64,000 nt of DNA from Nannocystis sp. SCPEA4 (GCF_026626685.1 NZ_JAPNJX010000001.1:268752-332751), one strand, 5' to 3'. Shown: positions 838-59,800, numbered from the stretch's first letter. Notes: generated from the sequence alone by a model not told the origin. Made by a program: numbers and translations.

Positions 838-1079
838 CGGCCCCGAGGATGGCGCCTCGGCCGGCTCGCGGTCAAGCGCCCGGCCGCCTCCGACCCGCGC
901 ACGCCGACCTCGGGCCGCGGACGACGCTCCTCGCCGGCCCCGACCGGCCAGGCCTCACGACCACGCCGTTCACATGTCTCTTGGAGCATGTCCAATCAAT
1001 CAGACAGAACGCGCCCGCTGTCGGCCCAGCGCGAGCGTTCCTCCGCCCGGCGACGAGCGGGGGCCCGCGACGCTCGCTG

Positions 1080-1312
1080 CAGGCGGGCACGGAGCGGCGG
1101 ATTTGGGACGCCGGTGGGACACCAGACGCGGTTCAGCGCGCGCAGGCGCCCCGTCCTGCGCGCGCGCGACGAACATGTCCTCAAGAGCATCTTGTCCGCA
1201 GCGACAGGCGCCGAGCACGTGAACCGGTAGGGGCCCGCCGAGCGAGCCGAGCGAGCGACCCAAATCCGCCGCTCCGTGCCCGCCGTCACCCAGTTCTTCC
1301 GGGCCCCGCGCC
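1080..1312. repeat. MITE-like repeat element, copy A (~200 bp core flanked by ~26-30 bp perfect terminal inverted repeats)
   Basis: Left TIR ggcgggcacggagcggcggatttggg (1083-1108). Right TIR cccaaatccgccgctccgtgcccgcc (1259-1284) is its exact reverse complement. The internal sequence is homologous to copies at 5687-5902 and 35391-35584. Confidence 0.8.
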
Positions 1313-1338
1313 CTCGCACGCGCCAAACCCAGCCGCGT

Positions 1339-2256
1339 TCACCCCGGCCCGAAGTCCTGGCGATAGCTGCCGCGCTCGATGTCCTCGACCAGCCCCGGCC
1401 GCGACGGGCGCCAGCCGAGCGCTCGCGCGTGCGTCGCTCGCACCCGGCTGTTGGACGCCAGCCCCATGGCCGCGGCCTCCTCGCCGAGCGCCGCGATCGC
1501 CTCGGCCAGCGGCCACGACGTCGTGCGGTCGCCGAACCCGAGCAGGTGCGCGATCGCCAGCGCCACCTCGCGCAGCGACGTCTCGCCGTTCTCGGCGAAG
1601 AAGAAGCTACCGGGCTCGGCCTTGTCGATCACCAGCGTGTACAGGTCGACGAGGTCGTCGATGTGCACGTTCGACCAGATGTTGCGACCCTCGCCGATGT
1701 ACACCCCGGCGCCGCGCTGCTGCGACTCGCGGATCAGCATCGGCACCTGGATCGAGTCGCGCTTGCTGCCGGTGCCGCGGCCGTAGATCATCGTCGGGCA
1801 CACCACGATGCTGCAGATCCCCTGGTGGGCCGCGTCGAGGACGAAGCGGTCGATGGCCACGCGCGCCGCCTTCGCCGGCACCGGCGTGAACGGCGTGTCG
1901 TCGGTGAACACCTGCTCCGACCGCTCGCCCGTGCCGACGTCGGCCACGATCGACGACCCGCTGGTGTGTACCAGCGTCTTGCCGCTCCCGCGCATGCCGT
2001 CGACCAGCGCCTCGACCGCCGCGCGGTGATCCGCGTCGGCCGTGTTGATCACCAGGTCGGCCTCGTCGGCCAGGCGCACCAGGAGGTCCGTATCGTCGAG
2101 CCCGCCGATCACCGGGCGCACCCCTGTCGCCTCCACGCGCGCCGCGCTCGCCGGATCGCGGACCAGGCCCATCACCTCGTAGCCGTCCTGCACCAGCCGT
2201 CGCGCCACCGAGCCGCCGATATAACCGGAAACACCTGTCACGAATGCACGCTTCAT
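1339..2256 (-). CDS. NAD(P)-dependent epimerase/dehydratase (NmrA/SDR-like) family protein
   Basis: MKRAFVTGVSGYIGGSVARRL Rossmann GxxGxxG motif at the N-terminus. The ORF 1339..2343 was trimmed to this Met. Divergent from a LysR gene. Confidence 0.75.
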   Translation of the reverse strand: MKRAFVTGVSGYIGGSVARRLVQDGYEVMGLVRDPASAARVEATGVRPVIGGLDDTDLLVRLADEADLVINTADADHRAAVEALVDGMRGSGKTLVHTSGSSIVADVGTGERSEQVFTDDTPFTPVPAKAARVAIDRFVLDAAHQGICSIVVCPTMIYGRGTGSKRDSIQVPMLIRESQQRGAGVYIGEGRNIWSNVHIDDLVDLYTLVIDKAEPGSFFFAENGETSLREVALAIAHLLGFGDRTTSWPLAEAIAALGEEAAAMGLASNSRVRATHARALGWRPSRPGLVEDIERGSYRQDFGPG

Positions 2257-2348
2257 CTCGCTGCTCCTGTACCGCGAGCATGGTGTGTTCCTGCGCAGCA
2301 TGGTAGTGTGATTGCTGGCACATCGCCTGTGCCTGAAAGGCAAAGCCC

Positions 2349-3236
2349 GTGGACCTGTCGCCGCAACTCCACGCGTTCGTCCGCAGCGTGCGGGCGGGCA
2401 GCTTCAGCGCCGCCGCGCGCGAGGCCGGCACCACCCCCTCGGCCTTCAGCAAGCAGGTCGCGCGGCTCGAGCAGAAGCTCGGCGTACCCCTGGTCATGCG
2501 CAGCGGCCAGGGTCTGCAGCCGACTCCCGAGGGCGAGGCCCTGTTCGCGCGGGTGCAGCGGGCCTTCGACGACATCACCGACGCCTGCGAGGAGGCCGCC
2601 CGCGCCACCGGCCCGCGCGGGCAGGTCCGCATGAGCGCCCCGGTCGAGCTCGGCCACGCCTGGCTGGTCCCGCGCCTGCCTGCCCTTCACCGCGCGCACC
2701 CGCAGATCGCCGTCACGCTCGAGCTCGCCGACCGCTTCGTCGACCTTCACGCCGAGCAATTCGACCTCGCCCTGCGCGTCGGCGGCGAGGGCGACGGCCG
2801 GCTGGTCCAGCGGCGGCTCGGTCGCCTGCGCCGCTGCTTCTGCGCCACCCCGGCCTACCTCAAGGCCCATGGCGTTCCGCGCACCCCCGAGGCCCTCGCG
2901 GGCCACCGCCTGCTCGCCATCCTCCGGGCCGGCCGGCGCGTCGCCTGGGAGCTGCCCGGCGGCGGGCGCCTCACCCCGCAGGGCCCCGTCGCCAGCGACA
3001 GCAACGAGGCCCTGCGCCAGCTCGCGCTCGCCGGCATGGGCATCGCCTGGCTGCCCGACGTCACGATCGCCGCCGACCTCAAGCGCGGCGCCCTGCGCCA
3101 GCTCTTCGCCGACACCCCCGAGGAGCCCGGCCTGCCGATCCAGCTCGTGTTCCCGCAGAGCCGCCTGCTCGCCCCGCGCGTCCGCGCCGTCGTCGACTTC
3201 CTCGTCGCCGCCGCCCGCAGCACCATGTCCGCATGA
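2349..3236 (+). CDS. LysR-family transcriptional regulator
   Basis: N-terminal HTH FSAAAREAGTTPSAFSKQVARLEQKLGVPLVMRSGQG, typical LysR. LysR substrate-binding domain follows. Divergently arranged with the SDR gene. Confidence 0.85.
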   Translation: MDLSPQLHAFVRSVRAGSFSAAAREAGTTPSAFSKQVARLEQKLGVPLVMRSGQGLQPTPEGEALFARVQRAFDDITDACEEAARATGPRGQVRMSAPVELGHAWLVPRLPALHRAHPQIAVTLELADRFVDLHAEQFDLALRVGGEGDGRLVQRRLGRLRRCFCATPAYLKAHGVPRTPEALAGHRLLAILRAGRRVAWELPGGGRLTPQGPVASDSNEALRQLALAGMGIAWLPDVTIAADLKRGALRQLFADTPEEPGLPIQLVFPQSRLLAPRVRAVVDFLVAAARSTMSA

Positions 3237-3401
3237 ACATGTCCTGATGGCCATGTTCCTCGGAACGGCACGCAGCGAAGTCCGCAGGAATCTGTCCCGA
3301 GGGACACATGGCACGCACAACAGCAATGCCCTTTTCGTAATTCAGATCACCAAACTTGCAATTTGGCGGTAACGGCGCCTCCGTGATAGCTTCGGCCCGA
3401 C

Positions 3402-4007: not shown

Positions 4008-4189
4008 CCAAACGGAAATGTTCATTCGGACATGTCTGTGACGACATGTCTGATCGCCCGGGGCGCCTCATGACCTTGCCGTCTGCGCATGACCAATGAG
4101 ACATGTCTAGATAATCATCTTCTCCACGTCTCCGCCGACGGCGCCAGCGGAGCTCGCATGCATCGACCTGCGCCAGCATCGCCGGAGAT

Positions 4190-4824: not shown

Positions 4825-4901
4825 GGTGCGATGATAGCCTGCGAGCGCCCGCCCGCGCAGCCGCCGTTGCTGCCACCGCCGGCGACGTGTAGCATCGAAC
4901 G

Positions 4902-5510: not shown

Positions 5511-5683
5511 CTCCGTGTGAACGCGCTCGCCCGCGTTCGATCGAGCTCGCAGCACAGCCAATCCACCCACGCCATCAACCTGTCCCCAAGACCACCCTGT
5601 CCAAAGAGACAGCGCCTCGTACACGAGCACCAGCGCACGCCCCTCCCCGCCCGGCCACGAGCGGGGCCCGCGACGATCGTCGA

Positions 5684-5902
5684 GAGGCGGGCACGGAGCG
5701 GCGGATTTGGGACGCCGGTGGGACGGAGACGCGGTTCAGCGCGCGCAGGCGCCCGTCTCCCCCCACGCGAGCAACCTGTCCTCAAGACCATCCTGTCCAA
5801 AGAGACAGCGCCGAGCACGTGAACCGGTAGGGGCCCGCCGAGCGAGGGACCCAAGTCCGCCGCTCCGTGCCCGCCGTCACCCAGTTCTTCCGGGCCCCGC
5901 GC
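5684..5902. repeat. MITE-like repeat element, copy B; a partial internal copy lies immediately upstream (~5565-5612)
   Basis: Left TIR 5687-5712 and right TIR 5850-5875 (1 mismatch). The internal caacctgtcctcaagaccatcctgtccaaagagacagcgccgagcacgtgaaccggtagggg is homologous to copy A. The right end overlaps the stop codon of the TetR gene. Confidence 0.8.
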
Positions 5903-6641
5903 CTCCGGACGAGCGAAGCTCTCCGGACTCCGCGCCTGCGGACGAGCGAAGCTCTCCGGACTCGGCCCCCGTGCCTCCGGACGAGCGAAGCTCTCCGGAC
6001 CCCGAACCTCCGGACGAGCGAATCTCCCCGGACTCGCCGGCCCCCTCGATCGCCCCGTAGAGCAACCGAGCCGCCCGAGCCACCTGCTCCACCACCGTCT
6101 CCGGCCCGTGCAGTTCCGCCGTCCAGCCGACCAGGCGAGAGAACCACACGTCCTGCAGGACCGCCAGCATCTCGAGCTCCGTCGCCGTCACCGGTCCCTC
6201 GTCGCGGCCGCGGATCGCCCCCACGATCAGCTCCATCAGCGCGCTGTGGAAGCGGTGCAGTCGTTCGGCCAGCGCGTTCTCTCCCGTCGCCGCCGAGCGG
6301 ATCACCGCGCGTCCCAGATGCGGTCGTGCGCACAGCGTCTCGGTCAGCGCTGCGAAGCACTCGATCAGGCGGTCGAGGCGGGTCGCGCCGGGGAGAGGTG
6401 CGTCGCCGAAGCGCTCGCGCAGCGCCACCAGCTCGAGCGACAGCACTCCGACCAGCAGGTCTTCCTTGCTGCGGAAGCGCTTGTAGACCGTGCCCAGGGC
6501 CACGCCGGACGCCTGGGCCACATCGCGCAGGCGCACGGCCGAGAACCCGCCGGACTCGGCGAGTCGGACTGCCGCGTCGAGGATTCGGCGGGCGCGGTCG
6601 TCGACGAGGGTGAGCTCGCCGGGGATCGGGGCAGCCGTCAT
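5877..6641 (-). CDS. TetR/AcrR-family transcriptional regulator with a repetitive C-terminal tail
   Basis: HTH ILDAAVRLAESGGFSAVRLRDVAQASGVALGTVYKRFRSKEDLL. The C-terminal ~50 aa is (SGELRSSGG)n, encoded by 30-bp tandem repeats. Lies downstream of the P450 on the same strand. Confidence 0.8.
   Translation of the reverse strand: MTAAPIPGELTLVDDRARRILDAAVRLAESGGFSAVRLRDVAQASGVALGTVYKRFRSKEDLLVGVLSLELVALRERFGDAPLPGATRLDRLIECFAALTETLCARPHLGRAVIRSAATGENALAERLHRFHSALMELIVGAIRGRDEGPVTATELEMLAVLQDVWFSRLVGWTAELHGPETVVEQVARAARLLYGAIEGAGESGEIRSSGGSGSGELRSSGGTGAESGELRSSAGAESGELRSSGGAGPGRTG
5890..6045. repeat. Tandem direct repeat, ~30-bp unit x ~4-5 (cggacgagcgaagctctccggac...)
   Basis: Seen directly in the sequence. 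It encodes the SGELRSSGG repeats of the TetR C-terminus on the minus strand. Confidence 0.8.
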
Positions 6642-8107: not shown

Positions 8108-8330
8108 TTTTCAGGCAAGAGGCCATCTCGCGCGATGGCGAGCATTCCTGCCCCGGCGCCAGCCCCAGCCGCCATGACGCCCTTTCCGTCGCGTCCGATC
8201 GCCTCGATTTTCGCGCGCGAATCCGCCCCGCGCGCAGTCGACCAGGTGAACCGCACGTCCTCGTCGCCATCGGCATGTCCCAGAGGACATGTCCTTCAAA
8301 TCGCCATGACATGTCTCGAGAGACAGCCCC

Positions 8331-10469
8331 TCACAAGCACGGGTCGCCGGCCGGCAGCAGCACCCGCAGCGAGCGCGGCGCCATCGCCACCTCCGCGCCC
8401 GGTGTCACCTCGAGCTGCTCCCCCGTCAGCGCGTCCACGTACGAGCCTGCCTCGAAGGACATGTCCTCGAGCGCGATCGCCCCCGCCTGCCCCGCGCGCC
8501 ACGCCAGCACCAGCGCGCGCTGCCCCTCCGGCGTCGCCCGCTCGAACGCGTACGCCTCGCCCTCGGCCACCAGCGCCCGCCGTTCGCCGCGCAGCAGCGC
8601 CGGCGAGCAGCGGCGCAGCTGCCCGAGCCGGCGCGTCGTCGCCAGCAACTTCGCTTGCGGCGCCATCAACGCGTCGACCGCCGGCATCACCCGCCGGCAG
8701 TCGGGGTCGTTGCCGCCGGCCAGTCCGACCTCGTCGCCGTAGTAGATCACCGGCAGCCCCGGCAGCGTCAGCACCAGCCCAAGCGCCAGCGCCTGGCGCT
8801 CGTACGGCTCCGCCGCGACCGGCTGCGGCTCCGGGCTGGCCCATGGGTCAGGTGCCGTCCCGCCCGCCGCCTCCGACAGGAACCGCGTCGTGTCGTGGTT
8901 CCCGATCATCCGCGCCAGCGTCCCGCCGCTGCCGGCCGTCTTGGCCTCGACCGCGAGCAGCGACGTCTCGACCGCCTCGAACCCCGCCGACTCGTGGGCC
9001 ACCGCGTCGCGCAGCGCCCACATCAGCGGGAAATCGAACACGCTGTCGAGCCCTTCCGGCCCGAGGTAGTAGCGGATCACCTCGATCCCGCCCGCCCCCG
9101 GCCCCGTGAACACCTCGCCGACGAAGAAGCTCGCCTCGCGCGGCGCCAGCCGCTCGCGCACCTCCGCCGCGATCCGGCGCGTCGCCGCCCGCGGCATCAT
9201 CGGCACCGCGTCGATCCGCATCCCGTCGACGTCGAATTCCTCCATCCACCACACCGCGTCCTCGTAGGCCCAGCGCAGCGCCTCCGGCCGCTCGAGCCGC
9301 AGATCGGGCAGGTACGGCGTGAACCAGCACGTCTGGATGTAGCGCCCCCAGTCGCAGCTCCCGAGCCCGCACACACATGTCGGATCGGACCTGTTCCAAA
9401 GGTCCTCCGCCGCGTGCGTCACATAGCGCTCGTTGGCCTCGTACACGTGGTTCGGCACCAGGTCGAGCAGCACCCGGATCCCCCGGGCGTGCGCCGCCGC
9501 CACCAGCGAGCGCAGCGCCGCCTCCCCCCCGATCCGCGGATCGACCGCGCGCGACTCGAGCGGCCAGTAACCGTGATAGCCCTCGTAGAGGTGCCCGTCG
9601 CCGCGGCCCTCGCGGGCCTCCGTCGGGTTCACGTACACCGGCGACAGCCACAGCGCCGTCGCCCCGAGCGCCGCGATCGACTCGAGCTCCGCCTCGATCC
9701 CGTCGAGCGTCCCGCCCGCGCGCCCGCCCGGGCTCGCCGGCGGCGCCAGCGTCGCCCCGCCGGGCCCGCGGAAGCGATCGATCATCACCTGCACGAGCAC
9801 GCCCTCCTGCGGTCGGGCCGCCGCAGGCTCGACCCATCCGACCACCCGCGCCCGCGCCTCGCGACCGGCGCGATCGACCGCCACCAGCTCGAGCGAGTGC
9901 TTGCCGCGAGGCAGCCCCGCGCGCTCGATCGTGATCGACCCGCTCGCCGGATCGATCACCGCCGGCACCACCGTCCCGTCGCTCGCACGGCCCTCCGCGC
10001 GCTGCAGCGGCGAGCCGTCGGCCCCGGCCAGCAGCCGCGCCGACGCCGACCACGTCCCGGCAGGCGTCGCCTCGACCGCGTCGACCACCAGCTCCGGCTG
10101 CGCACAATCGGCGATCCGCAGCAGCGACACCTCGAGGTCGTCCTGCTCGCGCCAGAACGTCGTTAGCGGGTTGTGCTCGTCGACGCGATCGACCCCGTCC
10201 TCGACGATCAGGTAGCCGTATTCGCCGGGCGGCAGCTCGAGCTGCGCCACCTGCCACTGCGGGTCCTCGGCGCTGGTCCGCAGCGGCACCCCGGGCACGT
10301 ACCACGCGTTCCACGAGCCCACGATCTCGAGCGACCCCCCGGCCCGAAGCGGCTGCGCCCACACCGTCACCGTGCAGTCGCGCCGCGGTGGCGCCGCATC
10401 CTCGCAAGCGGCGAGCCCGACCGCGATCGCCGCGGCCATCACTCGGACGTGCCGACCTCCCCCGCGCAT
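8331..10469 (-). CDS. Alpha-amylase family (GH13) lipoprotein with an N-terminal accessory domain
   Basis: LAAC lipobox. The GH13 motifs LWLSPVY, GYHGYW and LLDLVPNHV are present. Confidence 0.85.
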   Translation of the reverse strand: MRGGGRHVRVMAAAIAVGLAACEDAAPPRRDCTVTVWAQPLRAGGSLEIVGSWNAWYVPGVPLRTSAEDPQWQVAQLELPPGEYGYLIVEDGVDRVDEHNPLTTFWREQDDLEVSLLRIADCAQPELVVDAVEATPAGTWSASARLLAGADGSPLQRAEGRASDGTVVPAVIDPASGSITIERAGLPRGKHSLELVAVDRAGREARARVVGWVEPAAARPQEGVLVQVMIDRFRGPGGATLAPPASPGGRAGGTLDGIEAELESIAALGATALWLSPVYVNPTEAREGRGDGHLYEGYHGYWPLESRAVDPRIGGEAALRSLVAAAHARGIRVLLDLVPNHVYEANERYVTHAAEDLWNRSDPTCVCGLGSCDWGRYIQTCWFTPYLPDLRLERPEALRWAYEDAVWWMEEFDVDGMRIDAVPMMPRAATRRIAAEVRERLAPREASFFVGEVFTGPGAGGIEVIRYYLGPEGLDSVFDFPLMWALRDAVAHESAGFEAVETSLLAVEAKTAGSGGTLARMIGNHDTTRFLSEAAGGTAPDPWASPEPQPVAAEPYERQALALGLVLTLPGLPVIYYGDEVGLAGGNDPDCRRVMPAVDALMAPQAKLLATTRRLGQLRRCSPALLRGERRALVAEGEAYAFERATPEGQRALVLAWRAGQAGAIALEDMSFEAGSYVDALTGEQLEVTPGAEVAMAPRSLRVLLPAGDPCL

Positions 10470-10931: not shown

Positions 10932-12566
10932 GTGCGCCGCGATCTTCGTCCTGTCCTGTCCCTCGCCGTCGCGTTCCTCGGCGCCGCCGTATCGCCTGCG
11001 GCCGCCGCCCAGAGCCCGTCCGCGCCGCCGACCACCTCGCAGCCGACCGCCTCGACGCCGCCGGTCACCCCGGCACCGACCGAAGCTGTCCCTGCGGACA
11101 GCCCGACGGAGGTCGCCACCGAGCCGGAGCCCGCGCCCGCCGAGGCCACCCCGCGCGAGGAGCCTGCCCCCGCGCCCGTGCCCGAGCCAGCCGTCAAGCC
11201 GGAGAAGAAGCCGGCCGCCAAGGGCCCGCACCCGCACGATCCCAACAGCCCCCCGGGCCTCGCCGACGGCTTCCACTTCGGCTCCTACGGCCGCGTCATC
11301 GCCGGCGGTGATGCGGCAGGTCGGGCCGGGCGCAACGGCGACATCGTCGCCCGCGGGTCACGGCTCGACGAGGCCAACTACGCCGAGCTCGAGCTGCGCC
11401 GCGAGGACTACTGGAAGTCGACCGGCGCCTACACGCGGATCGTCGCCACCACCGCCTTCGCCAACCCGATCTTCCACTACAACGGCCAGTTCGCCGCCTC
11501 GCTGGCGATCCGCAACCTCTACCTCGAGGTCCGCAATGCCGGCGTCAAGGGCCTGTCCTTTTGGGCAGGTTCACGCATGTACCGCGGCGACGACATCTAC
11601 CTGCTCGACTTCTGGCCGCTCGACAACCTCAACACCATCGGCGGCGGCGTCGGCTACACCTTCAAGACCGGCACCGAGCTCAAGTTCCACGCCGGCCTCA
11701 ATCAGCCGACCGATCCGTACTATCGCCAGACCATCCTGCGCCCGCCCACCTACAATCAATTCGGGCAGGCCGAGGTCGCGATCCTCGATCGCCAGAAGCT
11801 GGTCAGCAGCGTCAAGCTCAGCCACGTCTGGCCGGTCGGCGAGAGCGGCGGCATCAAGGGCATCCTCTACGGCGAGCTGCACTACGTGCCCGAGGGCCAG
11901 CGCGAGGTCGAGAGCAAGGTCTACGAGCAGGTCCCCAAGGACAAGGGCTTCGTCGGCGGCGCCCAGGTCGGCGCCTTCACCGGCAAGCGCAGCACCTACG
12001 TCAACCTCACCGCGCGCTTCGCCTCCGGCCTGGCCGCCTATGGCGAGCTCAATGCACCCCGGCAGCTGCGGCCCGATCGCCTGACCACCGGCGCCTACGA
12101 ATTGCTCGTCACCCTCAGCGGCAACTGGGAGCGCGGCCCGTTCGGCCTGCTCATGGGCTCGTATTATCGCCAGTTCCGCAACGCCAGCCGCTCGCTCGAC
12201 TGGGACGACCTCAACGAGGGCATCGTCATCGCCCGCCCGCAGGTGTGGTTCGCCAAGATCGCCGGCGTCGCGCTCGAGGCCTCGTATCAGGCCCAGCAGC
12301 GCGGCGTCGCCACCGAGGCCGAGCCCAACCTGTTCAAGCCCGTGTTCGCGCAGATGGGCCGCTTCGGCCTGATCCCCTTCATCACCCCGGGCGGCCCCGG
12401 CGCGTTCCAGCGCCCGCACATCCGCCTGATCTATCTCCTCACCGTGCGCGACGCCGGCGCGCGCTCGTTCTACCCGGCCGACGACAAGTTCGCCCGCCGC
12501 GGCGTCGATCACTTCATCGGCGTCGGGGCCGAATGGTGGTTCGGCTCGACCAGTTACTTCCGCTGA
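10932..12566 (+). CDS. Maltoporin (LamB)-like outer-membrane carbohydrate porin with a Pro/Ala/Thr-rich N-terminal linker
   Basis: Signal peptide. GFHFGSYGRV / SRLDEANYAELELRRE / SFWAGSRMYRGDDIYLLDFWPLDNLNTIGGGVG align with E. coli LamB DFHGYARSG / YRLGNECETYAELKLGQE / [30 protein letters not shown]. Confidence 0.7.
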   Translation: MRRDLRPVLSLAVAFLGAAVSPAAAAQSPSAPPTTSQPTASTPPVTPAPTEAVPADSPTEVATEPEPAPAEATPREEPAPAPVPEPAVKPEKKPAAKGPHPHDPNSPPGLADGFHFGSYGRVIAGGDAAGRAGRNGDIVARGSRLDEANYAELELRREDYWKSTGAYTRIVATTAFANPIFHYNGQFAASLAIRNLYLEVRNAGVKGLSFWAGSRMYRGDDIYLLDFWPLDNLNTIGGGVGYTFKTGTELKFHAGLNQPTDPYYRQTILRPPTYNQFGQAEVAILDRQKLVSSVKLSHVWPVGESGGIKGILYGELHYVPEGQREVESKVYEQVPKDKGFVGGAQVGAFTGKRSTYVNLTARFASGLAAYGELNAPRQLRPDRLTTGAYELLVTLSGNWERGPFGLLMGSYYRQFRNASRSLDWDDLNEGIVIARPQVWFAKIAGVALEASYQAQQRGVATEAEPNLFKPVFAQMGRFGLIPFITPGGPGAFQRPHIRLIYLLTVRDAGARSFYPADDKFARRGVDHFIGVGAEWWFGSTSYFR

Positions 12567-15633: not shown

Positions 15634-15677
15634 GCATGTTTTCAAGGGCCTGTCGATACGCGCATGTCCGTCCGGAC

Positions 15678-17873: not shown

Positions 17874-17997
17874 TCCCCCGCGAGCACCCTGCCACGAGGC
17901 TCTTCGAGCCTGCCCCTACGGCCATGTCCTCAGGGTCATGCCTCTCACGACATGCCCTGACGACCATCCCACCCCCCCTCACCGTCGAGGTCCGCCC

Positions 17998-18876: not shown

Positions 18877-18879
18877 CGG

Positions 18880-20960: not shown

Positions 20961-21016
20961 ATCCAACCCGCGGTCAGCGCATTCCAAGCCTGGAACCCTC
21001 AGCCCTGGAGAATTTC

Positions 21017-25730: not shown

Positions 25731-25912
25731 GGACATGTTCCTGAGGACATGGCTTTCGCAACAGTCTAGAAAGGGCATGTCCCAAGGACATCCCGCGACG
25801 GACGTCCTGCTCGACCGTGTCGTGACGCCCCACCACTGCCACCGCACCTCGACGGCCGGGCCGACGAAGCCAGGTCCCCGCCGAGCCGCTCGCTCCGCCA
25901 GCGTCGCTCGTC

Positions 25913-26428: not shown

Positions 26429-26548
26429 AGCTCGCGGTCACGCGCGTGCGGCCCTGAATATTCCTCGGGAACCTCGCCGCGGCGGCGCTGTCTGCCGCTC
26501 CCGAGCGACGCGCGTGCGGCCGGTGGCGGCCGACATGTCCGTCGCGAC

Positions 26549-35384: not shown

Positions 35385-35590
35385 GTGACGGCGGGCACGG
35401 AGCGGCGGAGCGGGTCCCTCGCTTTCGGCGGGGCCCTCCCAGGCAACGTGCTCGGCGCCCTCGGGCTTCGATGTTGATCTGTCGTTGAGGACAGGTTCGT
35501 TCGTGCCTGGCGGACGATGGCGCCTGCGCGCGGTTGCCTGCGGCCCCTCCCGCCGGCGTCCCACTCCGCCGCTCCGTGCCCGCCTGCGAA
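35385..35590. repeat. MITE-like repeat element, copy C (inverted internal orientation relative to A/B)
   Basis: TIRs ggcgggcacggagcggcggagcgg (35391-35414) and ccactccgccgctccgtgcccgcc (35561-35584). The internal sequence is the reverse complement of the copy A/B core. Confidence 0.7.
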
Positions 35591-35905
35591 GAGCGTCGCC
35601 GGCCCCGCTTGTCGCCATGCGGCGAGCGCGGCACCACCGACTGCGGTGTCGCATGCGCCATGTCCAAGAGGACATGCTCTCCGGGACAACGTGCTCGGCG
35701 CCCTCGGGCTTCGATGTTCATCTGTCGTTGAGGACAGGTTCGTTCGTGCCTGGCGGACGATGGCGCCTGCGCGCGGTTGCCTGCGGCCCCTCCCGCCGGC
35801 CCCGCTCGTCGCCTGGCGGTGAGCGCGGCACCACCGACTGCGTGTCGCACGCGCCATGTCCACGAGGACATGCTCTCCGGGACAGAGCGTGCTCCGTCGA
35901 GCATG
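35445..35905. repeat. Tandem duplication, 241-bp unit x ~1.9, overlapping copy C and extending toward the queA stop
   Basis: aacgtgctcggcgccctcgggcttcgatgtt...ccatgtccaagaggacatgctctccgggac recurs at 35445 and 35686. The second unit lacks the TIR. Confidence 0.7.
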
Positions 35906-42902: not shown

Positions 42903-42996
42903 ATTCATGTCCGCGGGGACAGCTCTCAGGAGCGCGAGCCGGCGGCGGCTCGAGCCGCGGTCGGCCGGCTGGCTGCCATGTCCCCCGGGACAGCTC

Positions 42997-43656
42997 TCAG
43001 GAGCGCGAGCCCGTGCGCGCGTGGGCGCGGCGGCCGGGCACGTCGGCGCGCTGCATCGGCGCCGGCGGCAGCTCGAGCCGCGGGTCGGCCGGCTGGCTGC
43101 GGCGCAGCACGTCGAGCGAGACCTCGTCGAACTCGTCGTCGGCGTCGTCCTCCTCGAGGTCCTCACGGGCGGTGAAGCGGCGGCGGAGGATCAGCGCCTC
43201 GTCGGCCGCGTCGGCCTCGTCGCCCATCTCGCCGAGCTCCTCCTCGTCGACCTCGTCGAGCTCGGCCGGATCGGCGCTCGGCGGCTCGAGCTCGAGCTGG
43301 GCCGGGCTGGCGCGCCGCTTGCGAGCCGCGGGGGCGGACTTGCCGGCCGGGGCGTTGAGGCTCGCGCGCAGCTCGACGCCCGGACGGAAGTCGATCGTGA
43401 AGGCCGCATCGATCGTCATCGGCTCGAGCGTCCGCGGGTTGACGCCCTTGCGAGCGGAGCGCTTCTTCTTGGTGAAGGTGCCGAAGCCGGGGAACGTGAA
43501 GCGCGGGCTCTGGGCCCGCGTCACCCTCGCCTTGACGAAGTAGGCGGCCATCTCCCCGAACGCGATCTCGAGGATCTGCTGCACGCACTTCTTCGTGATG
43601 TCCGGCGGCAGATCACGGTTGCGTGCGATTTTTTCGATGAGTTCAGCCTTCGTCAT
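42997..43656 (-). CDS. HU/IHF-family DNA-binding protein with a long acidic/low-complexity C-terminal tail
   Basis: N-terminal ~90 aa MTKAELIEKIA...FPGFGTFTKKKRSARKGVNPRTLEPMTIDA has the HU fold signature. The tail overlaps ~72-bp repeats at 42906-43105. Confidence 0.7.
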   Translation of the reverse strand: MTKAELIEKIARNRDLPPDITKKCVQQILEIAFGEMAAYFVKARVTRAQSPRFTFPGFGTFTKKKRSARKGVNPRTLEPMTIDAAFTIDFRPGVELRASLNAPAGKSAPAARKRRASPAQLELEPPSADPAELDEVDEEELGEMGDEADAADEALILRRRFTAREDLEEDDADDEFDEVSLDVLRRSQPADPRLELPPAPMQRADVPGRRAHARTGSRS

Positions 43657-44619: not shown

Positions 44620-45080
44620 GTTGACCGTGCGAGCGCGCGGCGGCTCCGCGGACGGCGGGGTCGCGGCGCGTGATCTCGGTGCCTCTTGCGGCGGCGACGA
44701 CTCCCAGTCTGCAGAGCCCCGCTGCGCGCGCCCTCGCGTCGTCTCCTGCGGCGGCGACTCCCGCTGCGCGCGCCCGCGTGTCGTCTCCGGCTGCGACGAC
44801 TCCCAGTCCCCGGAGCCCGGCTGCGCGCGCCCGCGTGTCGTCTCCTGCGGCGGCCACGGCTCCCAGTCTCCGGGGTCGGGCTGCGGCGACGGCTCCCAGT
44901 CCTCGGGGCCCGGCTGCGCGCGACCGCGTGTCGTCTCCTGCGACGGCTCCCAGTCCGCAGGGCCCGGCTGCGCGCGCCCTCGCTTCGTCTCCTGCGGCGG
45001 CGGCCCCGAGGCCGCCGGGCCCGGTTGTGTGCGCGCTCGCGGCTCGGACTCGCGGGCGGATCTGGCCTGGTCTTCGGGCC
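44620..45080. repeat. Degenerate tandem repeat array, ~45-90-bp units x ~6-7
   Basis: Units of the form cctgcggcggcgactcccagtc...ggctgcgcgcgcccgcgtgtcgtct. On the minus strand they translate to (PQETTRGRAQ...DWEPS)n, either an N-terminal extension of UDG or an intergenic array. Confidence 0.7.
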
Positions 45081-45323: not shown

Positions 45324-46642
45324 TCAGCTCGTCGCGGCCAGCGCGTCGAGCAGCCAGGCCGCCAGCGCCGCCTTGGCGATCGGCGGGCCCGAGGCGCGCA
45401 CGGCGATCGCGTCGCCGTCGCGCGCCAGCAACAGGCCGGCGTTGGTCGCCGACGCGAAGCCGACCCCGGGCGCGCCGACGCGGTTGACGAAGATCGCGTC
45501 GGCGCCCTTGGCCCGCAGCTTGGCCGAGCCGAGCCGGATCAGCTCCTGCTGCAACCTGTCCTCGGGGCCATCCTCGACCGTCTGCGCGGCGAACCCGAGG
45601 AAGCGCGAGCGCGGGGCGCCCGGCGCCGCGCCGCGGCCGAAGCGGGCCGTCAGCGCGGCGAGGATGTCGGGCGCCGCCCGCCAGCCGAGCGTCGGCAGCG
45701 TCGCCAGCAGCTCCACCTTCTCGAGCTTGCGCGCGGCGCCGCCGTCGATCTCGAGGTCCTGCACCGCCGCCACCATGGCCACCCAATCACATGGCCCTTG
45801 AGACAGCTCGTTCTCCAGCGCCGCCTGCATCTCGGCCGCGGTCTCGACGTCGACGCGGCGCACCCCCGCCGGGGTGACCAGCTCGACCGGCCCGGCCACG
45901 AGCGTCACCGCGGCGCCGGCGCGCTGGGCCGCCTCGGCCAGCGCGAAGCCCATCGCCCCGGTCGACGCGTTGGTGACGAAGCGGACCGGATCGATGTACG
46001 TGCGCGTCGGCCCGGCCGACACCAGCACGCGCTTGCCGGCCCACGGCCCGCGGCTCGCTGCGCCGACGCCGAGCCGCGCCAGCGCGGCGGCGACGATCAG
46101 CGGCGGGTCGATCATGCGGCCCTCGCCGATCCACCCGCACGCCAGCTGCCCGCGATCGGGCCCGACGAACTCGGCCCCGCGGGCGCGCAGCGTCGCCAGG
46201 TTGTCCTGCGTGGCCGGGTGGCGCCACATGTTGGTGTTCATCGCCGGCGCCCACAGCACCGGCGCGCGCGTGGCCAGCAGCACCGTCGCCGCGAGGTCGT
46301 TCGCCAGCCCGTGGGTCGCGCGCGCCAGCAGGTCGGCGGTGGCCGGCGCGACGACCACCAGGTCGGGCCAGTCGGCGAGCTCGATGTGGCCGACGTGGCC
46401 CTCCTCCTCCGGATCGAGCAGGCGCGTGCGCACCGGCCGGGTCGAGACCGTCGCCAGCGACAGCGCGCTGACGAACGCCTCCGCCGCCGGCGTCATCACC
46501 ACCTGGACCTCGCAGCCGGCGGCGACGAACGCCCGCACCAATTCCGGCGCCTTGTAGGCCGCGATCCCGCCGCTGACGATCAGCAGGACGCGACGGCCCC
46601 GCGGACGTGTCCCCTGGGACATGTCCGTGGCGCCAGCCTCGG

Positions 46643-47804: not shown

Positions 47805-48569
47805 TTAGCTGTTCTTGGAGACAGGTACTTCGGGACAGGGCGCTTCGGACCTGTCCCCAGAGTCAGCATTCACGGCGGCCGCGGCGGCGTTGTCGGCGTA
47901 GCCGGGCGCGGCGTCGACGTAGCCGGCGCGGACCAGGGCCTCACGGGTGAGCGCGGGCGCGGCAGCCCGGCCGGCCTCGGCCTCGGAGCCGAGCAGGCGG
48001 GCGACGTAGCGCGCCAGCAGGTCGACCTCGAGGTTGAGCGCGTCGCCCACCTTCAGGTCGGCCAGGGTCGTGGCCGCGAGCGTGTGCGGGATCAGGCCCA
48101 CGGCGAACCCGCGCGGGTCGACGGCGTTGACGGTGAGGCTGACGCCGTCGACGCACACGCTGCCCTTGACCGCGATGTAGCGGGCCAGCTCGGCCGGGAC
48201 GTCGAACCACATCTCGACCGCGTCGCCGCGGGCGACCCGGCTGCGCACGCGCGCCAGGCCGTCGACATGGCCAGACACGAGATGACCGCCGAGCGCGTCG
48301 CCGAGCCGCAGCGCCGGCTCGAGGTTGACGCGGCTGCCCGGCCGCAGTTCGCCGAGGGTGGTGACCGCGAGCGTCTCGAACGCGGCTTCGACAGTAAAGT
48401 CGTTGGCGGTCGAGGCGACCACGGTGAGACACACGCCCGAGATCGCGACGCTGGCGCCGAGGCTGCGATCGCCCTCCGACAGCGCGTAGCGGATCACGAA
48501 GGTGCGTCGCTGCGCGCCAGGGATCACGCGCTCGACCGTGCCGACGCCGCGCACGAGGCCGGTGAACAT
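47805..48569 (-). CDS. ribE: Riboflavin synthase (alpha subunit) with a ~50-aa C-terminal extension
   Basis: MFTGLVRGVGTVERV...GHLVSGHVDG lumazine-binding repeats. The tail ...ADSGDRSEAPCPEVPVSKNS is encoded by palindromic-motif DNA. Confidence 0.85.
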   Translation of the reverse strand: MFTGLVRGVGTVERVIPGAQRRTFVIRYALSEGDRSLGASVAISGVCLTVVASTANDFTVEAAFETLAVTTLGELRPGSRVNLEPALRLGDALGGHLVSGHVDGLARVRSRVARGDAVEMWFDVPAELARYIAVKGSVCVDGVSLTVNAVDPRGFAVGLIPHTLAATTLADLKVGDALNLEVDLLARYVARLLGSEAEAGRAAAPALTREALVRAGYVDAAPGYADNAAAAAVNADSGDRSEAPCPEVPVSKNS

Positions 48570-49865: not shown

Positions 49866-50479
49866 TTCACCTCGCTCTCCGGCGACGCAGCCGGCGCGGA
49901 CCTGTCCCCAGAGTCAGCCTCGTCCTCGCCCTCGGGGAAAGCCGCCAGCCGGGTCGGCGCGCTGAGTTGGATCTGCCCGCGGGCGTCGATCTCGAACAGC
50001 GTGCGCTGGCCCTCGGGGCTGGTGTGCGCGGCCTTCTCCATCTCGTTCAGCAGGTGCACGAACTCGTCGACCGCCTGGTACTCGCCGTGGGTGGCGACGT
50101 AGCGCACGTAGGCGACGGCGTCGAGCGGGCGCAGCAGGCGGAGGATCCGGTCGGCGATCTCCTCGGCGCGGATCTCCTTCTCTCCGCGCGTCGCGGCCCA
50201 CAGCTCGACCACGCCGAGCAGCGCCTCGATCTGCTCGTCATCGACGGGGCGCTTGCGGCAGACCGCCTGCAGCGAGGCGCGGATCTTGTTGCGATCGAAC
50301 AGCTGCTTGCCTCCGCCGCGCTTGAGCACGATCGGCGGCGTGGTCTCGATGCGCTCGTAGGTGGTGAAGCGGTGGTTGCAGTCGAGGCACGCGCGGCGCC
50401 GCCGGATCGCACCGCCGTCCCGACTCTCCCTCGAGTCGAGGACCTTGATGCTCCCGCTGCGGCAGACCGGGCAGAGCAA
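49862..50479 (-). CDS. nrdR: Transcriptional repressor NrdR with a ~55-aa C-terminal extension
   Basis: MLCPVCRSGSIKVLDSRESRDGGAIRRRRACLDCNHRFTTYE zinc ribbon + ATP-cone. The extension ...EADSGDRSAPAASPESEVN is encoded by the same 21-bp motif found at the ribE 3' end. Confidence 0.9.
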   Translation of the reverse strand: MLCPVCRSGSIKVLDSRESRDGGAIRRRRACLDCNHRFTTYERIETTPPIVLKRGGGKQLFDRNKIRASLQAVCRKRPVDDEQIEALLGVVELWAATRGEKEIRAEEIADRILRLLRPLDAVAYVRYVATHGEYQAVDEFVHLLNEMEKAAHTSPEGQRTLFEIDARGQIQLSAPTRLAAFPEGEDEADSGDRSAPAASPESEVN

Positions 50480-55313: not shown

Positions 55314-55320
55314 CTCTTGC

Positions 55321-56533: not shown

Positions 56534-56635
56534 CCGGCCGCATGTAGCGCGTGGCGCCAGGGCTGTCAAACCGCCGCCAGCCCGGATCCATTCCCCGCCA
56601 GCCCCGGATCCTCCTGAATCCTTCTGGATCCTTCT

Positions 56636-56665
56636 GTTGACACGGCAAACGTGGATTGGCTATTG
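56636..56665 (+). promoter_or_regulatory. Candidate sigma70-like promoter for the giant repeat protein gene
   Basis: TTGACA (56636-56641) - 18 nt - TATTGC (56660-56665). Preceded by four ggatcc(t)t direct repeats. Speculative. Confidence 0.25.
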
Positions 56666-56874
56666 CCTCCCGGCCCTTGGTCGCCTCTGAGCCCACTGCG
56701 CGCCTCGGAGGCGCCGACGCGAGTCCCCAGCTCGACGCGCCCGGCGACGTCCCGGTCGTCGGCGCCGTCATCCACACGCGCGTCGCCACAGTGTCCGCCT
56801 GCCTGATCGGCGCCTGTCTGATCGGACTTGTCCCTCGGGACAGCCACGCCGCGCGCCCCGTCCCGCAGCTCGGC

Positions 56875-59800
56875 ATGGTCGCCTCGACCGGCGCGCCGAC
56901 CTGGCCGGCCCTGCACGCCGCGCCCGGGCTGCGCCCTGCCGACCTGGTCGCCGGCCTCGGCGCGCCGCTGCTGCTCGCCCCGCCGCGCACCACCCCGCGG
57001 CGCCTGACCGGCGGCCAGGCCGAGCCGCCCGCCGGCGAGCCGCCTGCGAGCGAGCCGCCCGCGAGCGAGACGGCCGCGCCGGTCGAGCCTGTCCCTGAGG
57101 ACATGCCCGCTCAGCCAGGGCCTTCGGGACCTGGCCCGACGGGCAGCCCGCTGACGCGGCCGACCCCGAACCTCGCGCCGCCGCCGAGCGGCGACGATCT
57201 CCAGGCCGGTGACGAGGAGGTCGCGCCGGCGCCGGAGCCGACCAACGACAACGCCCCGCCGGTGACGGTGCTGGTGCCCGAGCCGGAGAAGCCCGACCCG
57301 ACCGACGAGGTCCCGCGCTTCCTCAAGGGCAAGAGCGTCCCGCCGTTCTGGATCGACCGCACCTACACGACGCACCGCACGCGCGCGCTGACGCTGCCGC
57401 CGCTGTTCTTCGACCGCCGCGGCACCGCGACCCATCCGGAGAAGCTGTTCCACTTCAACCTGTCCTTAACGACAGGTTGGTACAGCCAGCGCACGGCCAA
57501 GCGGCGGTGGTTGTCGCCGGCGATCCTGTTCTTCGGCTCGTTCAGCGAGCGCACCAGCGGCTGGGGCGCGGTCGCGCTGCTGATGGGCTACAAGCGGGTC
57601 GGCGAGCAGTTCAGCTTCGGCCAGTTCCCGTTCGTGTGGCGGTGGGGCAACAAGTCGGTCAAGAACCTGATCGTCGTCCCCTTCCACTACCACCAGAAGA
57701 CGCCCGACAGCATGCGCGGCTTCTCGGCGGTGCTGTTCTGGTACGGCCACAAGAACACCACCGACAAGGACCCGCTCAACGACCTGCGCTACTTCGTCGG
57801 CTTCCCGCTGTTCTACCGCGTGACCCGCGGCCCGAGCACCGTCAACGTCGGCGTCCCGCTCTACGTCGGCGGGCAGAACAAGGCCCGCGGGGTCAAGTGG
57901 CACACGGTGCTGCCGTTCGTGCACTGGCAGTCGAGCGAGTACGGCAACCGCAAGGACCTGTGGACGCTGCTGTACGTGCAGCGCAGCGACAAGGCCCGCA
58001 GCCTGCGCGCGTGGGCCGTCCCGCCGCTCCTCACGTTCTCGCACCAGACCCCGACGCGCAAGCTGTTCTCGGCCACGCCGCTGGTGTGGCGCGCCGAGAA
58101 CCGCGACCGCGGCAGCGTCGCCTGGTCGGCGTTCCCGTGGGTCAGCTACCGCGACCCGGAGCAGCGCAACCGCGTGCTGTTCCCGCTGTTCTGGCAGTTC
58201 GGCGACCTGAAGGCCGGCGTCACCAGCAGCGTGTTCGTCCCGCTGCTGTACGCGCGCAAGAGCCCGCAGGACACGCGGGTCTACACCCTGCTCGGAGGCG
58301 GTCGCGCCGGCAAGGACGGCCGCTGGGGCTTCGGCATCACCCCGCTGCTGACGTTCGTGCGCAACGAGCCGGGCGGCAAGAGCTTCCAGGTCGTCACGCC
58401 GCTGTTCGGCCACTCGCACGACCCGAGCGCCTACGACGGCAAGGGCTCGCGCACGCTGTCGGCCGGCGTGCTCGGCTTCTACCGCCGCCGCGGCGAGCGC
58501 TGGGACGCCGGCCTCGCCCCGCTCGCGTTCGTCGGCCGCGACGGCACCCGCTCGTACCAGACCATCACCCCGCTGTTCTGGCACCGCCGCGACACCGACC
58601 CGGCCAAGCCGAGCGACCTGTGGGTGCTCGGCCCGATCTACGCCAAGAAGGTCAAGTCCGGCGGGCACGGCGGCCTCGCACCGCTGGTGTTCGCCGGCCG
58701 CGACGACAAGTTCCGCTACGGCATCGTCCCGCCCTTGCTCTTCGGACATGTCCACGACGTCGAGGCCCAGCGCGCGCTGACGGTGTCGCCGCTGTTCGCC
58801 CGCAGCAAGGGCCCCGACCACCGCACGATCGGCGTGCTCAACCTGTTCTGGGACGTGAAGCGCGCCGGCGACGAGCGCCACACCGCGCTGTTCCCCCTCT
58901 TCTACCGGCGCCAGAAGGACGGCAAGGCGCTCACCCTCACCCCGCTGGGCGGCGCCTACCGCACGCCGGAGCAGCGCACCTGGTCGGCCGCGGCGCTCCT
59001 GTACGGCTTCCGCGGCTACAAGGATCCGGTCCGCCGCGGCTTCGGCCTGATCCCGCTGGTGTTCTACGATCGGCGCAAGGTCGAGGGCGGCGTCGCCAGC
59101 AACCTCGTCGTCGCGCCGCTGTTCGCCCGCCACCGCGCGCCCACCGAGGACCTCGACATGTGGTCGCCGCTGGTCTGGCGCACCGCCACCCGCGGCGAGA
59201 AGCCGCGCAAGAACCTCGCGGTCGTCCCGTTCTACTTCCGCCAGCGCCAGCCCGAGGGCATCGACGTCGACGCCGGCCTGCTGCTGCCGTTCTTCTACAG
59301 CCGCGACAAGGTCCGGCGCACGCACACGCTCATCGCCGGCCCGGCGTTCCACCGCCTCACCCGCACCTCGCTCAACGCCGGCGTGGTCCCGGTCTACTGG
59401 TGGATGGACTCGGCGGAGAAGCGGCGCCTGATCTCGCTGCCGCTCATCTTCCACCAGGCCGACAAGGGGAAGAACGAGCACACCACCATCGCCGTGCCGT
59501 TCTGGTTCGACCGTCAGCGGGCCAACGGTCGCCGCTCGTGGGTCGCGTTCCCGTTCGTCGTCGGCGTCAAGGGTCAGTTCAACTTCACGCGCTTCAGCCT
59601 GACCCCGCCGATCTTCTTCGACTTCTTCCGCCTGCACAAGAACTACCGCTTCACCGGCGTGGTCCCGTTCGCGTTCCGCTACCAGAAGTGCGGCTTCCGC
59701 GAGGAGGACGACGATCGTTGCCGCTACACGCTGTGGGGCTCGTGGCCGTTCTTCCTCTACGGCAAGGACGGCAAGGGCCGCACCAGCCACGGCGCGTTGA

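Follow-up and report, generated by a model that had tools for sequence, protein, structure and literature searches.

A dyad-symmetric DNA motif, apparently undescribed, recurs in Nannocystis and concentrates at gene 3′ ends

Introduction

The 64,000-nt stretch of Nannocystis sp. SCPEA4 DNA analysed here (the window) carries a family of short palindromes between and inside its genes. An earlier note had put the 10-mer GGACATGTCC first in this family and had suggested either a REP/BIME-like element or a very abundant protein-binding site. Here we ask what the repeated unit is, how its copies arise, where they lie relative to genes and what may read them.

Results

Copy number and geometry

Over-representation of the TGTCC/GGACA motif in the window was confirmed. 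GGACATGTCC had been claimed at least nine times against about 0.05 expected per 64 kb. Exactly nine copies were found (8285, 8457, 15702, 16128, 34696, 34738, 38528, 46617 and 58744), the positions first given being off by 0-8 nt, and dinucleotide shuffles gave 0.05. The dyad TGTCC-N4-GGACA occurred in 17 exact copies versus ~0.1 expected. At ≤1 mismatch the dyad reached 39 copies (about 1.6-1.7 expected) and GGACATGTCC 32 copies (1.7 expected), in agreement with the earlier view that the excess lies beyond chance, and one-mismatch variants were ~14-fold enriched, not depleted. The individual variants quoted before are real as well, at 3293, 25054, 56829, 40999, ~38525 and ~15662, albeit 2-13 nt from where they had been placed; the intergenic clusters are present, and a family built on TGTCC/GGACA half-sites, also inside genes, was borne out. 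This over-representation falls within the 15-300-fold range of HIP1-type short palindromes. Extrapolated from the window and the sampled loci, which is how any genome-wide figure is to be read, it would amount to thousands of copies per Nannocystis genome.

The primary unit is the two-fold-symmetric dyad, while GGACATGTCC, enriched as it is, represents the junction between two units. At ≤1 mismatch the order TGTCC..GGACA gave 39 matches with a spacing of N4 and 0-3 with each other spacing from N0 to N12; the reverse order GGACA..TGTCC gave 32 matches at N0 and 0-3 at any other spacing. The consensus is C(A/C)TGTCC-N4-GGACA(T/G)G, with a fixed spacer length and a free spacer sequence (36 different kinds among 39 sites at ≤1 mismatch). 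It contains no CATG within the dyad TGTCC-N4-GGACA. Dyads abut exactly, which results in GGACATGTCC at the junction and in tandem arrays with a strict 14-bp period, for which this self-complementary 10-mer is the building block. Since the flanks of each arrangement hold the other one in degenerate form, the sites form a lattice. Partnered half-sites numbered 82 in the window and solo half-sites 70, versus 81 solo expected by chance; the excess is confined to exactly spaced dyads, and single half-sites are at chance level.

Period-14 arrays were also recovered by an independent tool, TRF, which reports period 14 at 3222-3256. This is part of an array across the stop codon of the LysR gene (3226, 3235, 3240) that is followed by an exact dyad at 3293 (3222-3306 in total). 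An exact dyad adjoins an exact GGACATGTCC at 8276-8294, 37-55 nt past the stop of the minus-strand amylase gene, and the 16-bp palindrome TTCGGACATGTCCGAA lies with a one-mismatch dyad at 38528-38546, identical in N. bainbridge. Local copy families with common flanks were found at 35661/35857, at 42908/42979 and at 5598/5794, the last being two copies of the one-mismatch dyad TGTCCaaagAGACA (5598-5611 and 5794-5807) within a repeated ~200-bp unit; such families also occur in L167/L197.

Sites inside genes

The motif is a DNA-level signal, and its copies were made in place by point substitutions. In 49.5 kb of confident coding DNA we observed 10 and 7 exact sites, where synonymous-codon shuffles gave 0.09 and 0.65, and the sites are located in continuous, conserved reading frames. 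Their retention is paid for with rare codons and, in some cases, with changed amino acids. The peptide L-S-V-R-T, for example, is encoded here by CTG TCC GTG AGG ACA and in a site-less relative by CTC TCG GTG CGC ACC; three species with 50% amino-acid identity have all retained T-ending codons at one site; and third codon positions are A/T in 28% of cases within half-sites versus 4.3% gene-wide. In 13 loci, coding DNA holds 152 of the 296 near-consensus matches.

Exact dyads are found in an alpha-amylase-family gene (455-468), the LamB-like porin gene (11087-11100) and the CLC-channel gene (25054-25067), and together with a junction in the Memo-like gene (40994-41012, identical in N. bainbridge). 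The gene for a 1348-aa protein carries a junction with an exact dyad (56824-56842) and an exact dyad with a degenerate junction (57090-57108). In the ClpA/B-like gene, five one-mismatch matches and one exact dyad occupy the disordered linker (28176-28336), and a period-14 array lies near the 3′ end (30166-30203). Lone copies of GGACATGTCC occur in coding DNA at 8457-8466 and, in the frame GGA CAT GTC, at 58744-58753; the same frame is used by two copies in the bacA/uppP gene (34696-34747). In malEF one GGACATGTCC falls in the signal-peptide codons (GGA CAT GTC, 15702-15711) and is not present in relatives, another was created by the amino-acid changes DR to GH (16128-16137), and two exact dyads use the rare codons AGG, ACA and CCT (16636-16671).

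Position relative to genes

Motif density follows gene 3′ ends. In 13 loci, eight of them found by a motif search blind to gene context, convergent gaps had 9.3 matches/kb (14 of 19 gaps occupied), tandem gaps 4.5 (24 of 67) and divergent gaps 0.69 (2 of 27), compared to 0.75 in coding DNA (Fisher's test for convergent versus divergent gaps, p = 4e-6). Since divergent gaps do not exceed coding DNA in density, simple tolerance fails to explain the ~12-fold excess in convergent gaps. Matches in tandem gaps have a median position 27.5 nt past the stop, and arrays of 3-6 units start 5-20 nt past stop codons, so that regularly spaced clusters occupy 3′ or intercistronic DNA and not promoters, as described for REP/BIME.

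A degenerate junction and dyad (GAACATGTCC; TGTCCgcagCGACA) lie 133-168 nt past the epimerase-gene stop (1171-1206). Degenerate arrays begin 12 nt past the stop in a convergent gap (TGTTCattcGGACATGTCT, then more GACATGTC copies; 4019-4112), 1 nt past the CLC-gene stop (25731-25790) and 78 nt past the exbD stop (27178-27205), and a degenerate junction with a dyad is found 47 nt past the malEF stop (17920-17938). The 584-bp convergent gap between bacA and queA holds four dyads (35480, 35661, 35723 and 35857; 35480-35870), and the convergent gap after the HU-like gene two exact dyads (42908-42992), whose spacers differ in N. bainbridge. Between malK and malEF an exact dyad has extended arms (GCGCATGTCC-gtcc-GGACATGCGC; 15665-15678, fold z = -4.5). 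The array CGACATGTCCgtcgCGACATGTCC between the cupin and exbD genes (26531-26554) is kept in L081, and the array GGACGTGTCCcctgGGACATGTCC is located at the ribBA/coaBC junction (46603-46626, fold z = -4.55). GGACCTGTCC occurs at 47847-47856 and, near the 3′ end of nrdR, at 49898-49907, both within a common 23-nt block.

It had been suggested that the sites often overlap start codons. With gene starts taken from our own codon-usage caller they lie instead past stops and between convergent genes and avoid divergent promoter gaps; in a related annotated contig the ExbD and MalG starts are 43-60 nt downstream of the motif. Since the motif contains ATG, it offers false starts to ORF finders.

Distribution among genomes

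The motif is Nannocystis-specific and iterated genome-wide. About one match per kb was present in N. exedens, N. pusilla, N. bainbridge and environmental relatives, and every Nannocystis genome sampled was positive. Seven loci from at least five Nannocystis genomes had 0.83-1.76 matches/kb versus ~0.05/kb by chance, so the motif is not restricted to the window; it is such a restriction that the earlier note would have taken as refutation. Scans of Paraliomyxa, Sorangium and 1.27 Mb from other bacteria gave the motif at chance level only. Individual sites are kept across three species. Half-sites were 96-97% identical versus 88% for the background in the comparison with N. bainbridge, and 72-80% versus 90% in that with an N. 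exedens-like contig. The foreign-looking AIPR island (50-56% GC) has zero copies, and no transposase genes were found in the 64-kb window.

Sequence versus structure

Between orthologous sites the spacers drift while the half-sites persist. This and the following observations lead us to infer that sequence rather than structure is read in the dyad, which is most likely recognised in duplex form. Compensatory stem changes were seen in 8 of 145 double-mismatch dyads, with ~5 expected, which gives no covariation. Pairing beyond 5 bp is absent in 22 of 44 dyads, the conserved core comprises 14-18 bp, and stand-alone GGACATGTCC is enriched although it is unable to form a useful hairpin. In some arrays, folding nevertheless gives strong hairpins (z = -4.5).

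A function of the motif as intrinsic (Rho-independent) terminator was rejected, as the sites have no GC-rich hairpin followed by a U tract. Over 60 kb, 14 terminator-like sites of this type were counted with 15.5 expected, no excess, and none of them coincided with a motif site.

Discussion

A literature search for the TGTCC-N4-GGACA dyad found no published description, and the dyad apparently corresponds, as a hitherto undescribed element, to the REP, HIP1 and DNA-uptake repeats known from other bacteria. Its arrays resemble, as a likeness only, MetJ metboxes and Fur hexamer arrays, the tandem operators of polymerising repressors, in having short symmetric units head-to-tail, an exact register and neighbouring dimers that presumably touch. 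Those repressors have few, promoter-located operators per genome, whereas the Nannocystis motif avoids promoters and by extrapolation has thousands of copies. GGACATGTCC is also identical to a textbook example of the p53 response-element half-site RRRCWWGYYY; two such half-sites, a short spacer apart, are occupied by a dimer of dimers. We know of no p53-family proteins in bacteria, and the identity is a coincidence of sequence.

The reading that we prefer, if tentatively, is a REP/BIME-like 3′-end element in which the dyad is read as duplex DNA by a hypothetical dimeric, array-forming protein. This abundant protein would bind the dyad and also pair tail-to-tail, and thereby line up along the arrays. 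Arrays directly 3′ of stop codons, which between convergent genes are often two-sided, would act in the manner of REP/BIME as boundaries occupied by protein, where transcription units end or are insulated or local supercoiling is managed. Isolated in-gene copies would belong to the same set of binding sites but be occupied less. Several observations count against this reading. In a 14-bp register neighbouring dimers sit ~120 degrees apart around the helix, an uncommon arrangement for proteins that bind cooperatively; a motif driven by another force would likewise give the 2:1:0 ratio of convergent, tandem and divergent gaps if it were simply best tolerated in 3′ DNA; some arrays form strong hairpins; and conservation is uneven, being above background for N. 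bainbridge and below it for the N. exedens-like contig.

A self-DNA tag spread by molecular drive, like neisserial DUS, Pasteurellaceae USS and cyanobacterial HIP1, appears rather unlikely to us. An uptake, recombination or repair protein would prefer the dyad, copies would accumulate by point mutation where tolerated, and paired copies past stop codons would be a by-product or have a secondary terminator function. Such a tag fits the ~1/kb in coding and non-coding DNA alike, the in-place origin by substitution (amino-acid changes included), the genus specificity and the copy-free, foreign-looking AIPR island, and HIP1 is reported in preprints to be linked to transformation. The picture for DUS is the same: a spacing of ~1.1 kb, an intergenic excess, a location 'just after the stop codon' and, where two copies lie close together in inverted orientation, action as terminators (PMC2397512). 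With DUS and USS of Neisseriaceae and Pasteurellaceae the motif shares a density of ~1/kb, genus or family 'dialects', genic copies and an excess past stops as close inverted pairs. However, DUS and USS are asymmetric words of 9-12 nt, each recognised by itself, whereas in Nannocystis solo half-sites are at chance (70 vs 81 expected) and only exactly spaced dyads are enriched. Phased multi-unit arrays are unnecessary for a tag, and the ~12-fold convergent-gap excess is beyond simple tolerance. HIP1 (GCGATCGC) is a short cyanobacterial palindrome whose frequency exceeds expectation by two orders of magnitude; it lies within and between genes, is conserved between genomes, and is argued to be under selection and tied to nucleoid structure (PMC5861425). 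The Nannocystis motif is likewise an over-represented short palindrome within and between genes, but differs in sequence and phylum and is a bipartite dyad with a spacer, phased arrays and a strong concentration at gene 3′ ends.

It is improbable that the copies are REP/REPIN-type hairpins. On that view a RAYT-like tyrosine transposase would copy single-stranded DNA or RNA stem-loops from place to place in the genome, and in transcripts these would work either as 3′ stabilisers or as terminators without U. Published REPs and BIMEs are protein-binding, linked to termination and RAYT-dependent, with proposed roles in termination, chromosome organisation and protein binding, and those of Enterobacteria and Pseudomonads are, like the Nannocystis motif, lineage-specific, high-copy short palindromes in regular clusters, placed in transcribed 3′ or intercistronic DNA (PMC2817692). 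The absence from promoter gaps, the BIME-like arrays, the loci that fold well and the local copy families with common flanks agree with this. REP/BIME are, however, strictly extragenic and spread by transposition, whereas 152 of 296 matches (13 loci) are coding, 36 of 39 spacers are distinct, substitutions at orthologous codons and not insertions gave rise to the in-gene half of the copies, and duplicate families are few and local. The REP/BIME stem-loop is an imperfect palindrome of ~20-40 nt; here the core covers only 14-18 bp, its four central nt are free, and half of the dyads stop at a 5-bp stem (22 of 44 lack longer pairing, though some arrays reach z = -4.5); arrays of a self-complementary 10-mer have a 14-bp period, and compensatory covariation is absent. 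A hairpin also leaves the strict 4-nt loop and stand-alone GGACATGTCC unexplained. The earlier suggestion of a REP/BIME-like or abundant protein-binding site was in the right neighbourhood, but one defining feature of REPs does not apply, because roughly every second copy is in coding DNA and was created there by substitutions. The binding protein is hypothetical.

A binding site for a global transcription factor of the classical type, such as a CRP/FNR-like dimer that has a 5-4-5 operator and controls a large regulon from promoters, would account for a dyad with fixed spacing, a free spacer and retained orthologous sites, but is very improbable: the sites are not concentrated in promoter regions (2 of 27 divergent versus 14 of 19 convergent gaps), copies run by extrapolation to thousands per genome with many in genes, and multi-unit arrays come after stop codons. 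We give equally little credence to a whole dyad without a reader, left by passive repair or mutation bias (very-short-patch-repair-like) or by a methyltransferase or restriction history on ACATGT, which suits the enrichment in coding and non-coding DNA and the common near-cognate variants. Bias on a short word, however, cannot give a motif in two parts that allows a single spacing and forms phased arrays; besides, the dyad lacks CATG and one-mismatch variants are enriched and not depleted.

Returning to the protein-read 3′-end element, its furthest extension would be a genus-specific lattice, a doubtful but possible reading in which a putative DNA-binding protein recognises TGTCC half-sites, pairs in two modes and polymerises at 14-bp intervals. 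If this is true, arrays at the ends of transcription units would, in a genome of 72% GC that would lack hairpin-plus-U terminators, be terminators or insulators that depend on a factor and act in both directions, or else topological barriers, and the scattered sites of the same protein would have been imposed on coding sequences against codon usage.

Results

The most over-represented pentamer in the window (71.5% G+C) is GGACA/TGTCC, with 152 observed and 81 expected occurrences. Pairs of these half-sites were counted in all arrangements: TGTCC-N4-GGACA, hereafter the dyad, was found 17 times and GGACA-N0-TGTCC nine times, other spacings 0–3 times, and a direct-repeat peak with a 14-bp period was also present. 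With at most one mismatch (near-consensus hits) the two arrangements numbered 39 and 32, against 1.6 and 1.7 expected. The 10-mer GGACATGTCC, the palindrome at the junction of two abutting dyads, occurs exactly at 8285, 8457, 15702, 16128, 34696, 34738, 38528, 46617 and 58744, nine copies compared to 0.05 expected from dinucleotide-preserving shuffles of the window. This confirms the over-representation claimed in the earlier note, whose positions were up to 8 nt off. Chance or base composition as the cause was ruled out by dinucleotide shuffles, an order-3 Markov simulation and synonymous-codon shuffles.

A partner in either arrangement was found for 82 of the 152 half-sites, while 70 are solo, compared to ~81 by chance. 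Since solo half-sites match the chance expectation, the unit is the pair and not the word, which rules out a single-word motif. The extended consensus is C(A/C)TGTCC-N4-GGACA(T/G)G, its four central bases being unconstrained (36 different spacers in 39 sites). Degenerate outer half-sites flank GGACATGTCC at the exact N4 distance and GGACA/TGTCC-like sequences flank the dyad, so that all sites are pieces of one lattice, (TGTCC-N4-GGACA)n, whose units abut and give the 14-bp period. Tandem Repeats Finder independently reported period-14 arrays at 3222–3256 and 30167–30203 and, with up to 4.7 copies, in related contigs.

The window also contains other repeats. A non-coding unit of ~200 bp occurs twice (1100–1340 and 5690–5900), part of it also near 35540–35600, and is adjoined by 33-nt tandem repeats (CGGACGAGCGAAGCTCTCCGGACT..., 5858–6036) in a 1.16-kb gene-free gap; together they represent a second repeat family, tied to the dyad only by one degenerate copy that it carries. 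A 243-bp unit is tandemly duplicated at 35433–35826 (151 nt aligned, 89% identity) within the 584-bp convergent bacA/queA gap, which has no alignment to Nannocystis bainbridge. Tandem repeats with periods of 42–93 nt (44689–45061) lie in the 959-bp stretch between a uracil-DNA-glycosylase-like gene and coaBC, where no gene was called and an overlapping ORF had no Pfam match. Two paralogous neighbour genes on the minus strand (60923–62665 and 63142–63999), one with DUF4215 repeats, have a 300-nt block in common (60865–61164 and 63084–63383, 89% identity) as well as internal ~100-nt repeats, with the near-motif GGACATGTCG in each. On the given strand C strongly outnumbers G (24,817 versus 20,956), and the skew is negative throughout the profiled 18–22 kb except in a low-GC island.

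Gene calling relied on a codon-usage model with Pfam checks, and gene starts are approximate. The 49.5 kb of confident coding sequence contain 10 dyads and 7 copies of GGACATGTCC, whereas synonymous-codon shuffles within genes yield 0.09 and 0.65. Together with sites built of synonymous rare codons, these shuffles rule out a cause at the peptide level. In the malE-malF fusion the peptide L-S-V-R-T is encoded by CTG TCC GTG AGG ACA in the window and in two close relatives, and by CTC TCG GTG CGC ACC in a relative without the site. The site at 16128 was made by a change from D-R to G-H, and in another gene a T-ending codon (GCT or GAT) precedes GTC CTN TGG GAC ATG in three species at an amino-acid identity of only 50%. 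Third codon positions are A or T in 28% of cases within half-sites versus 4.3% gene-wide. Because no insertion is involved, the sites arise by substitution. The dyad is a DNA-level signal that originates in place.

The dyad is associated with gene 3′ ends. Its context was counted in 13 mutually non-orthologous loci, eight of them found via the motif itself in a search blind to gene context. Hit density is 9.3/kb in convergent gaps (14 of 19 occupied), 4.5/kb in tandem gaps (24 of 67), 0.69/kb in divergent gaps (2 of 27) and 0.75/kb in coding DNA; by Fisher's test, convergent and tandem gaps differ from divergent ones with p = 4e-6 and p = 0.005, respectively. This 2:1:0 pattern is the expectation for one array per gene 3′ end. 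In tandem gaps the median distance is 27.5 nt from the upstream stop to the first hit and 53.5 nt from the last hit to the next start, and in 17 of the 24 occupied gaps the hits are nearer the stop. Arrays of 3–6 units start 5–20 nt past stop codons. In the window, post-stop arrays or sites follow the LysR, CLC, amylase, malK, malEF and exbD genes, and the convergent bacA/queA and HU-gene gaps likewise carry sites. Hairpin-plus-T-tract terminators were not above chance in 60 kb (14 versus 15.5 expected).

The HU/IHF-family gene (42997–43656, minus strand) encodes 219 residues compared to 90 for the domain, and directly past its stop codon stand two exact dyads with GCTCTCAGGAGCGCGAGCC after each one. 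One 23-nt block, GCTGACTCTGGGGACAGGTCCG, is found in identical form on the minus strand at 47835–47857 and 49886–49908, ~40 nt ahead of the ribE and nrdR stop codons; both products have C-terminal extensions of 40–50 residues past their Pfam domains. A ClpA/B-like AAA+ protein (27803–30328) has a long low-complexity proline/arginine-rich linker with a cluster of dyad sites and ~50-nt repeats (28375–28506) encoding ...TWPE(G/D)(Q/H)P.... In malEF (15678–17873) one frame encodes a MalE-like solute-binding protein and, fused to it, a MalF-like permease. Conservation of this fusion reaches from Nannocystis to Sorangium, with 530 homologues at E ≤ 1e-30.

The trait is genus-level in Nannocystis. 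The earlier note had named confinement to the window as an outcome that would refute its observation; the motif was found in other Nannocystis loci. In N. bainbridge, whose QueA is 92% identical to that of the window, the syntenic 21-kb locus contains 7 + 6 exact sites, while loci of other bacteria, 1.27 Mb in total, had none. Loci of N. exedens, N. pusilla and Nannocystis sp. GCA_016714285, picked via an unrelated gene, have 0.99–1.66 near-consensus hits/kb compared to 1.11/kb in the window, and a non-syntenic metagenomic relative (MalEF identity 79%) has 0.83. Two 21–22 kb loci of GCA_016714285 differ more than fourfold (L084, 0.22; L273, 0.99 hits/kb), which shows an uneven spread of the motif in this genome. 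It is present only at chance level in Paraliomyxa miuraensis, an 11.1-Mb relative, and Sorangium cellulosum So ce56, and likewise in an uncultured 'Nannocystis' MAG with 64% GC. A metagenome scan for the array pattern gave at least 120 matches; those listed were mostly contigs of 70–77% GC, and among them the cytochrome c peroxidase of one motif-rich contig marks it as Nannocystis-like. By extrapolation, a genome of 11–12 Mb would hold several thousand exact and ~10,000 near-consensus copies.

The 2.1-kb island at 18877–21016 (50–56% G+C in a 72% G+C genome) encodes an AIPR (abortive-infection phage-resistance) protein (19085–20860). It has no dyad hit and is absent from an N. exedens-like contig, which suggests a defence gene of recent acquisition. 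The 66 hits in viral contigs of IMG/VR were either isolated and attributable to chance or belonged to dense local GGGGACA/TGTCCCC iteron clusters, the latter rejected as a phenomenon different from the dispersed Nannocystis motif. These clusters span 0.3–1.5 kb in L104, L110, L117 and L145 (and L149, L119, L085), contigs of 61–73% G+C. In four viral contigs they flank an ORF of ~400 aa, followed by a protein of ~185 aa and another of ~665 aa that weakly resembles FtsK/SpoIIIE, and look like iterons or a mobile-element transfer locus. The flanking proteins had no Pfam match and gave no lead to a protein that reads the dyad.

The window and N. bainbridge share 87% nucleotide identity. Of 11 exact sites, 7 recur as exact sites at the orthologous position and 3 with a single-base difference, their spacers being different. 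Half-site identity in coding DNA is 96–97% versus a background of 88%. In the comparison with the N. exedens-like contig this identity falls under background, which indicates site turnover, and in intergenic gaps arrays are retained even where the alignment fails. Half of the dyads have no pairing past the 5-bp arms and flank complementarity is marginal. Compensatory changes were seen in 8 of 145 double-mismatch dyads in 167 kb (~5 expected); as neither measure exceeds expectation, stem covariation was rejected. Some arrays fold strongly (z = −4.5), and Rfam gave no match at gathering thresholds across the whole window. The loop does not vary in length, and GGACATGTCC is also enriched in stand-alone form, in which it has no real hairpin potential. 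The limited pairing, few compensatory changes, rigid loop, enriched stand-alone GGACATGTCC and free spacers suggest that the base sequence is read. We therefore favour a symmetric protein that would read the duplex over selection for a stem-loop.

Discussion

Full-text literature searches returned no description of the Nannocystis dyad, only p53 papers and unrelated work; GGACATGTCC is known only as a p53 half-site, which is a coincidence. We rate the dyad as belonging with the lineage-specific iterated palindromes. It resembles HIP1 (PMC5861425) in its hyper-abundance and presence inside genes, but is bipartite, phased and 3′-biased. The U-tract of intrinsic terminators is not a feature of the dyad.

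Our tentative interpretation, possible rather than probable, is that a putative dimeric protein reads the dyad, may also pair tail-to-tail and would line up along the arrays, which could act like REP/BIME elements at transcription-unit ends. A self-DNA tag like DUS or HIP1, spread by molecular drive, is an unlikely alternative. Comparable density, copies in genes and post-stop pairs are shared with the neisserial DUS (PMC2397512), but the uptake signals known so far consist of one asymmetric word each, a feature that the dyad lacks. Still less probable is a REP-type hairpin mobilised by RAYT: the location fits, but the coding copies, free spacers and missing covariation do not, and the dyad is neither 'extragenic' nor a 'transposed copy' as REPs are. 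A promoter-acting regulator and a passive repair bias both fit poorly and are very improbable.

The dyad combines traits that are usually separate: the 3′-end arrays of REPs, the in-gene palindrome of HIP1, and the in-place origin and post-stop pairs of uptake sequences. This combination offers a fresh system for the old question of whether repeats of this kind exist as signals selected by the cell or result from molecular drive. The ATG inside the motif misleads gene callers on start codons, and the dyad bears on the engineering of these natural-product producers, in terminator design and the choice of DNA for transformation. Metagenomic contigs can be assigned to Nannocystis by its presence, and it marks native versus foreign DNA, as in the dyad-free AIPR island. 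At the extrapolated copy number, the dyad would rank among the most abundant sequence signals in these genomes.
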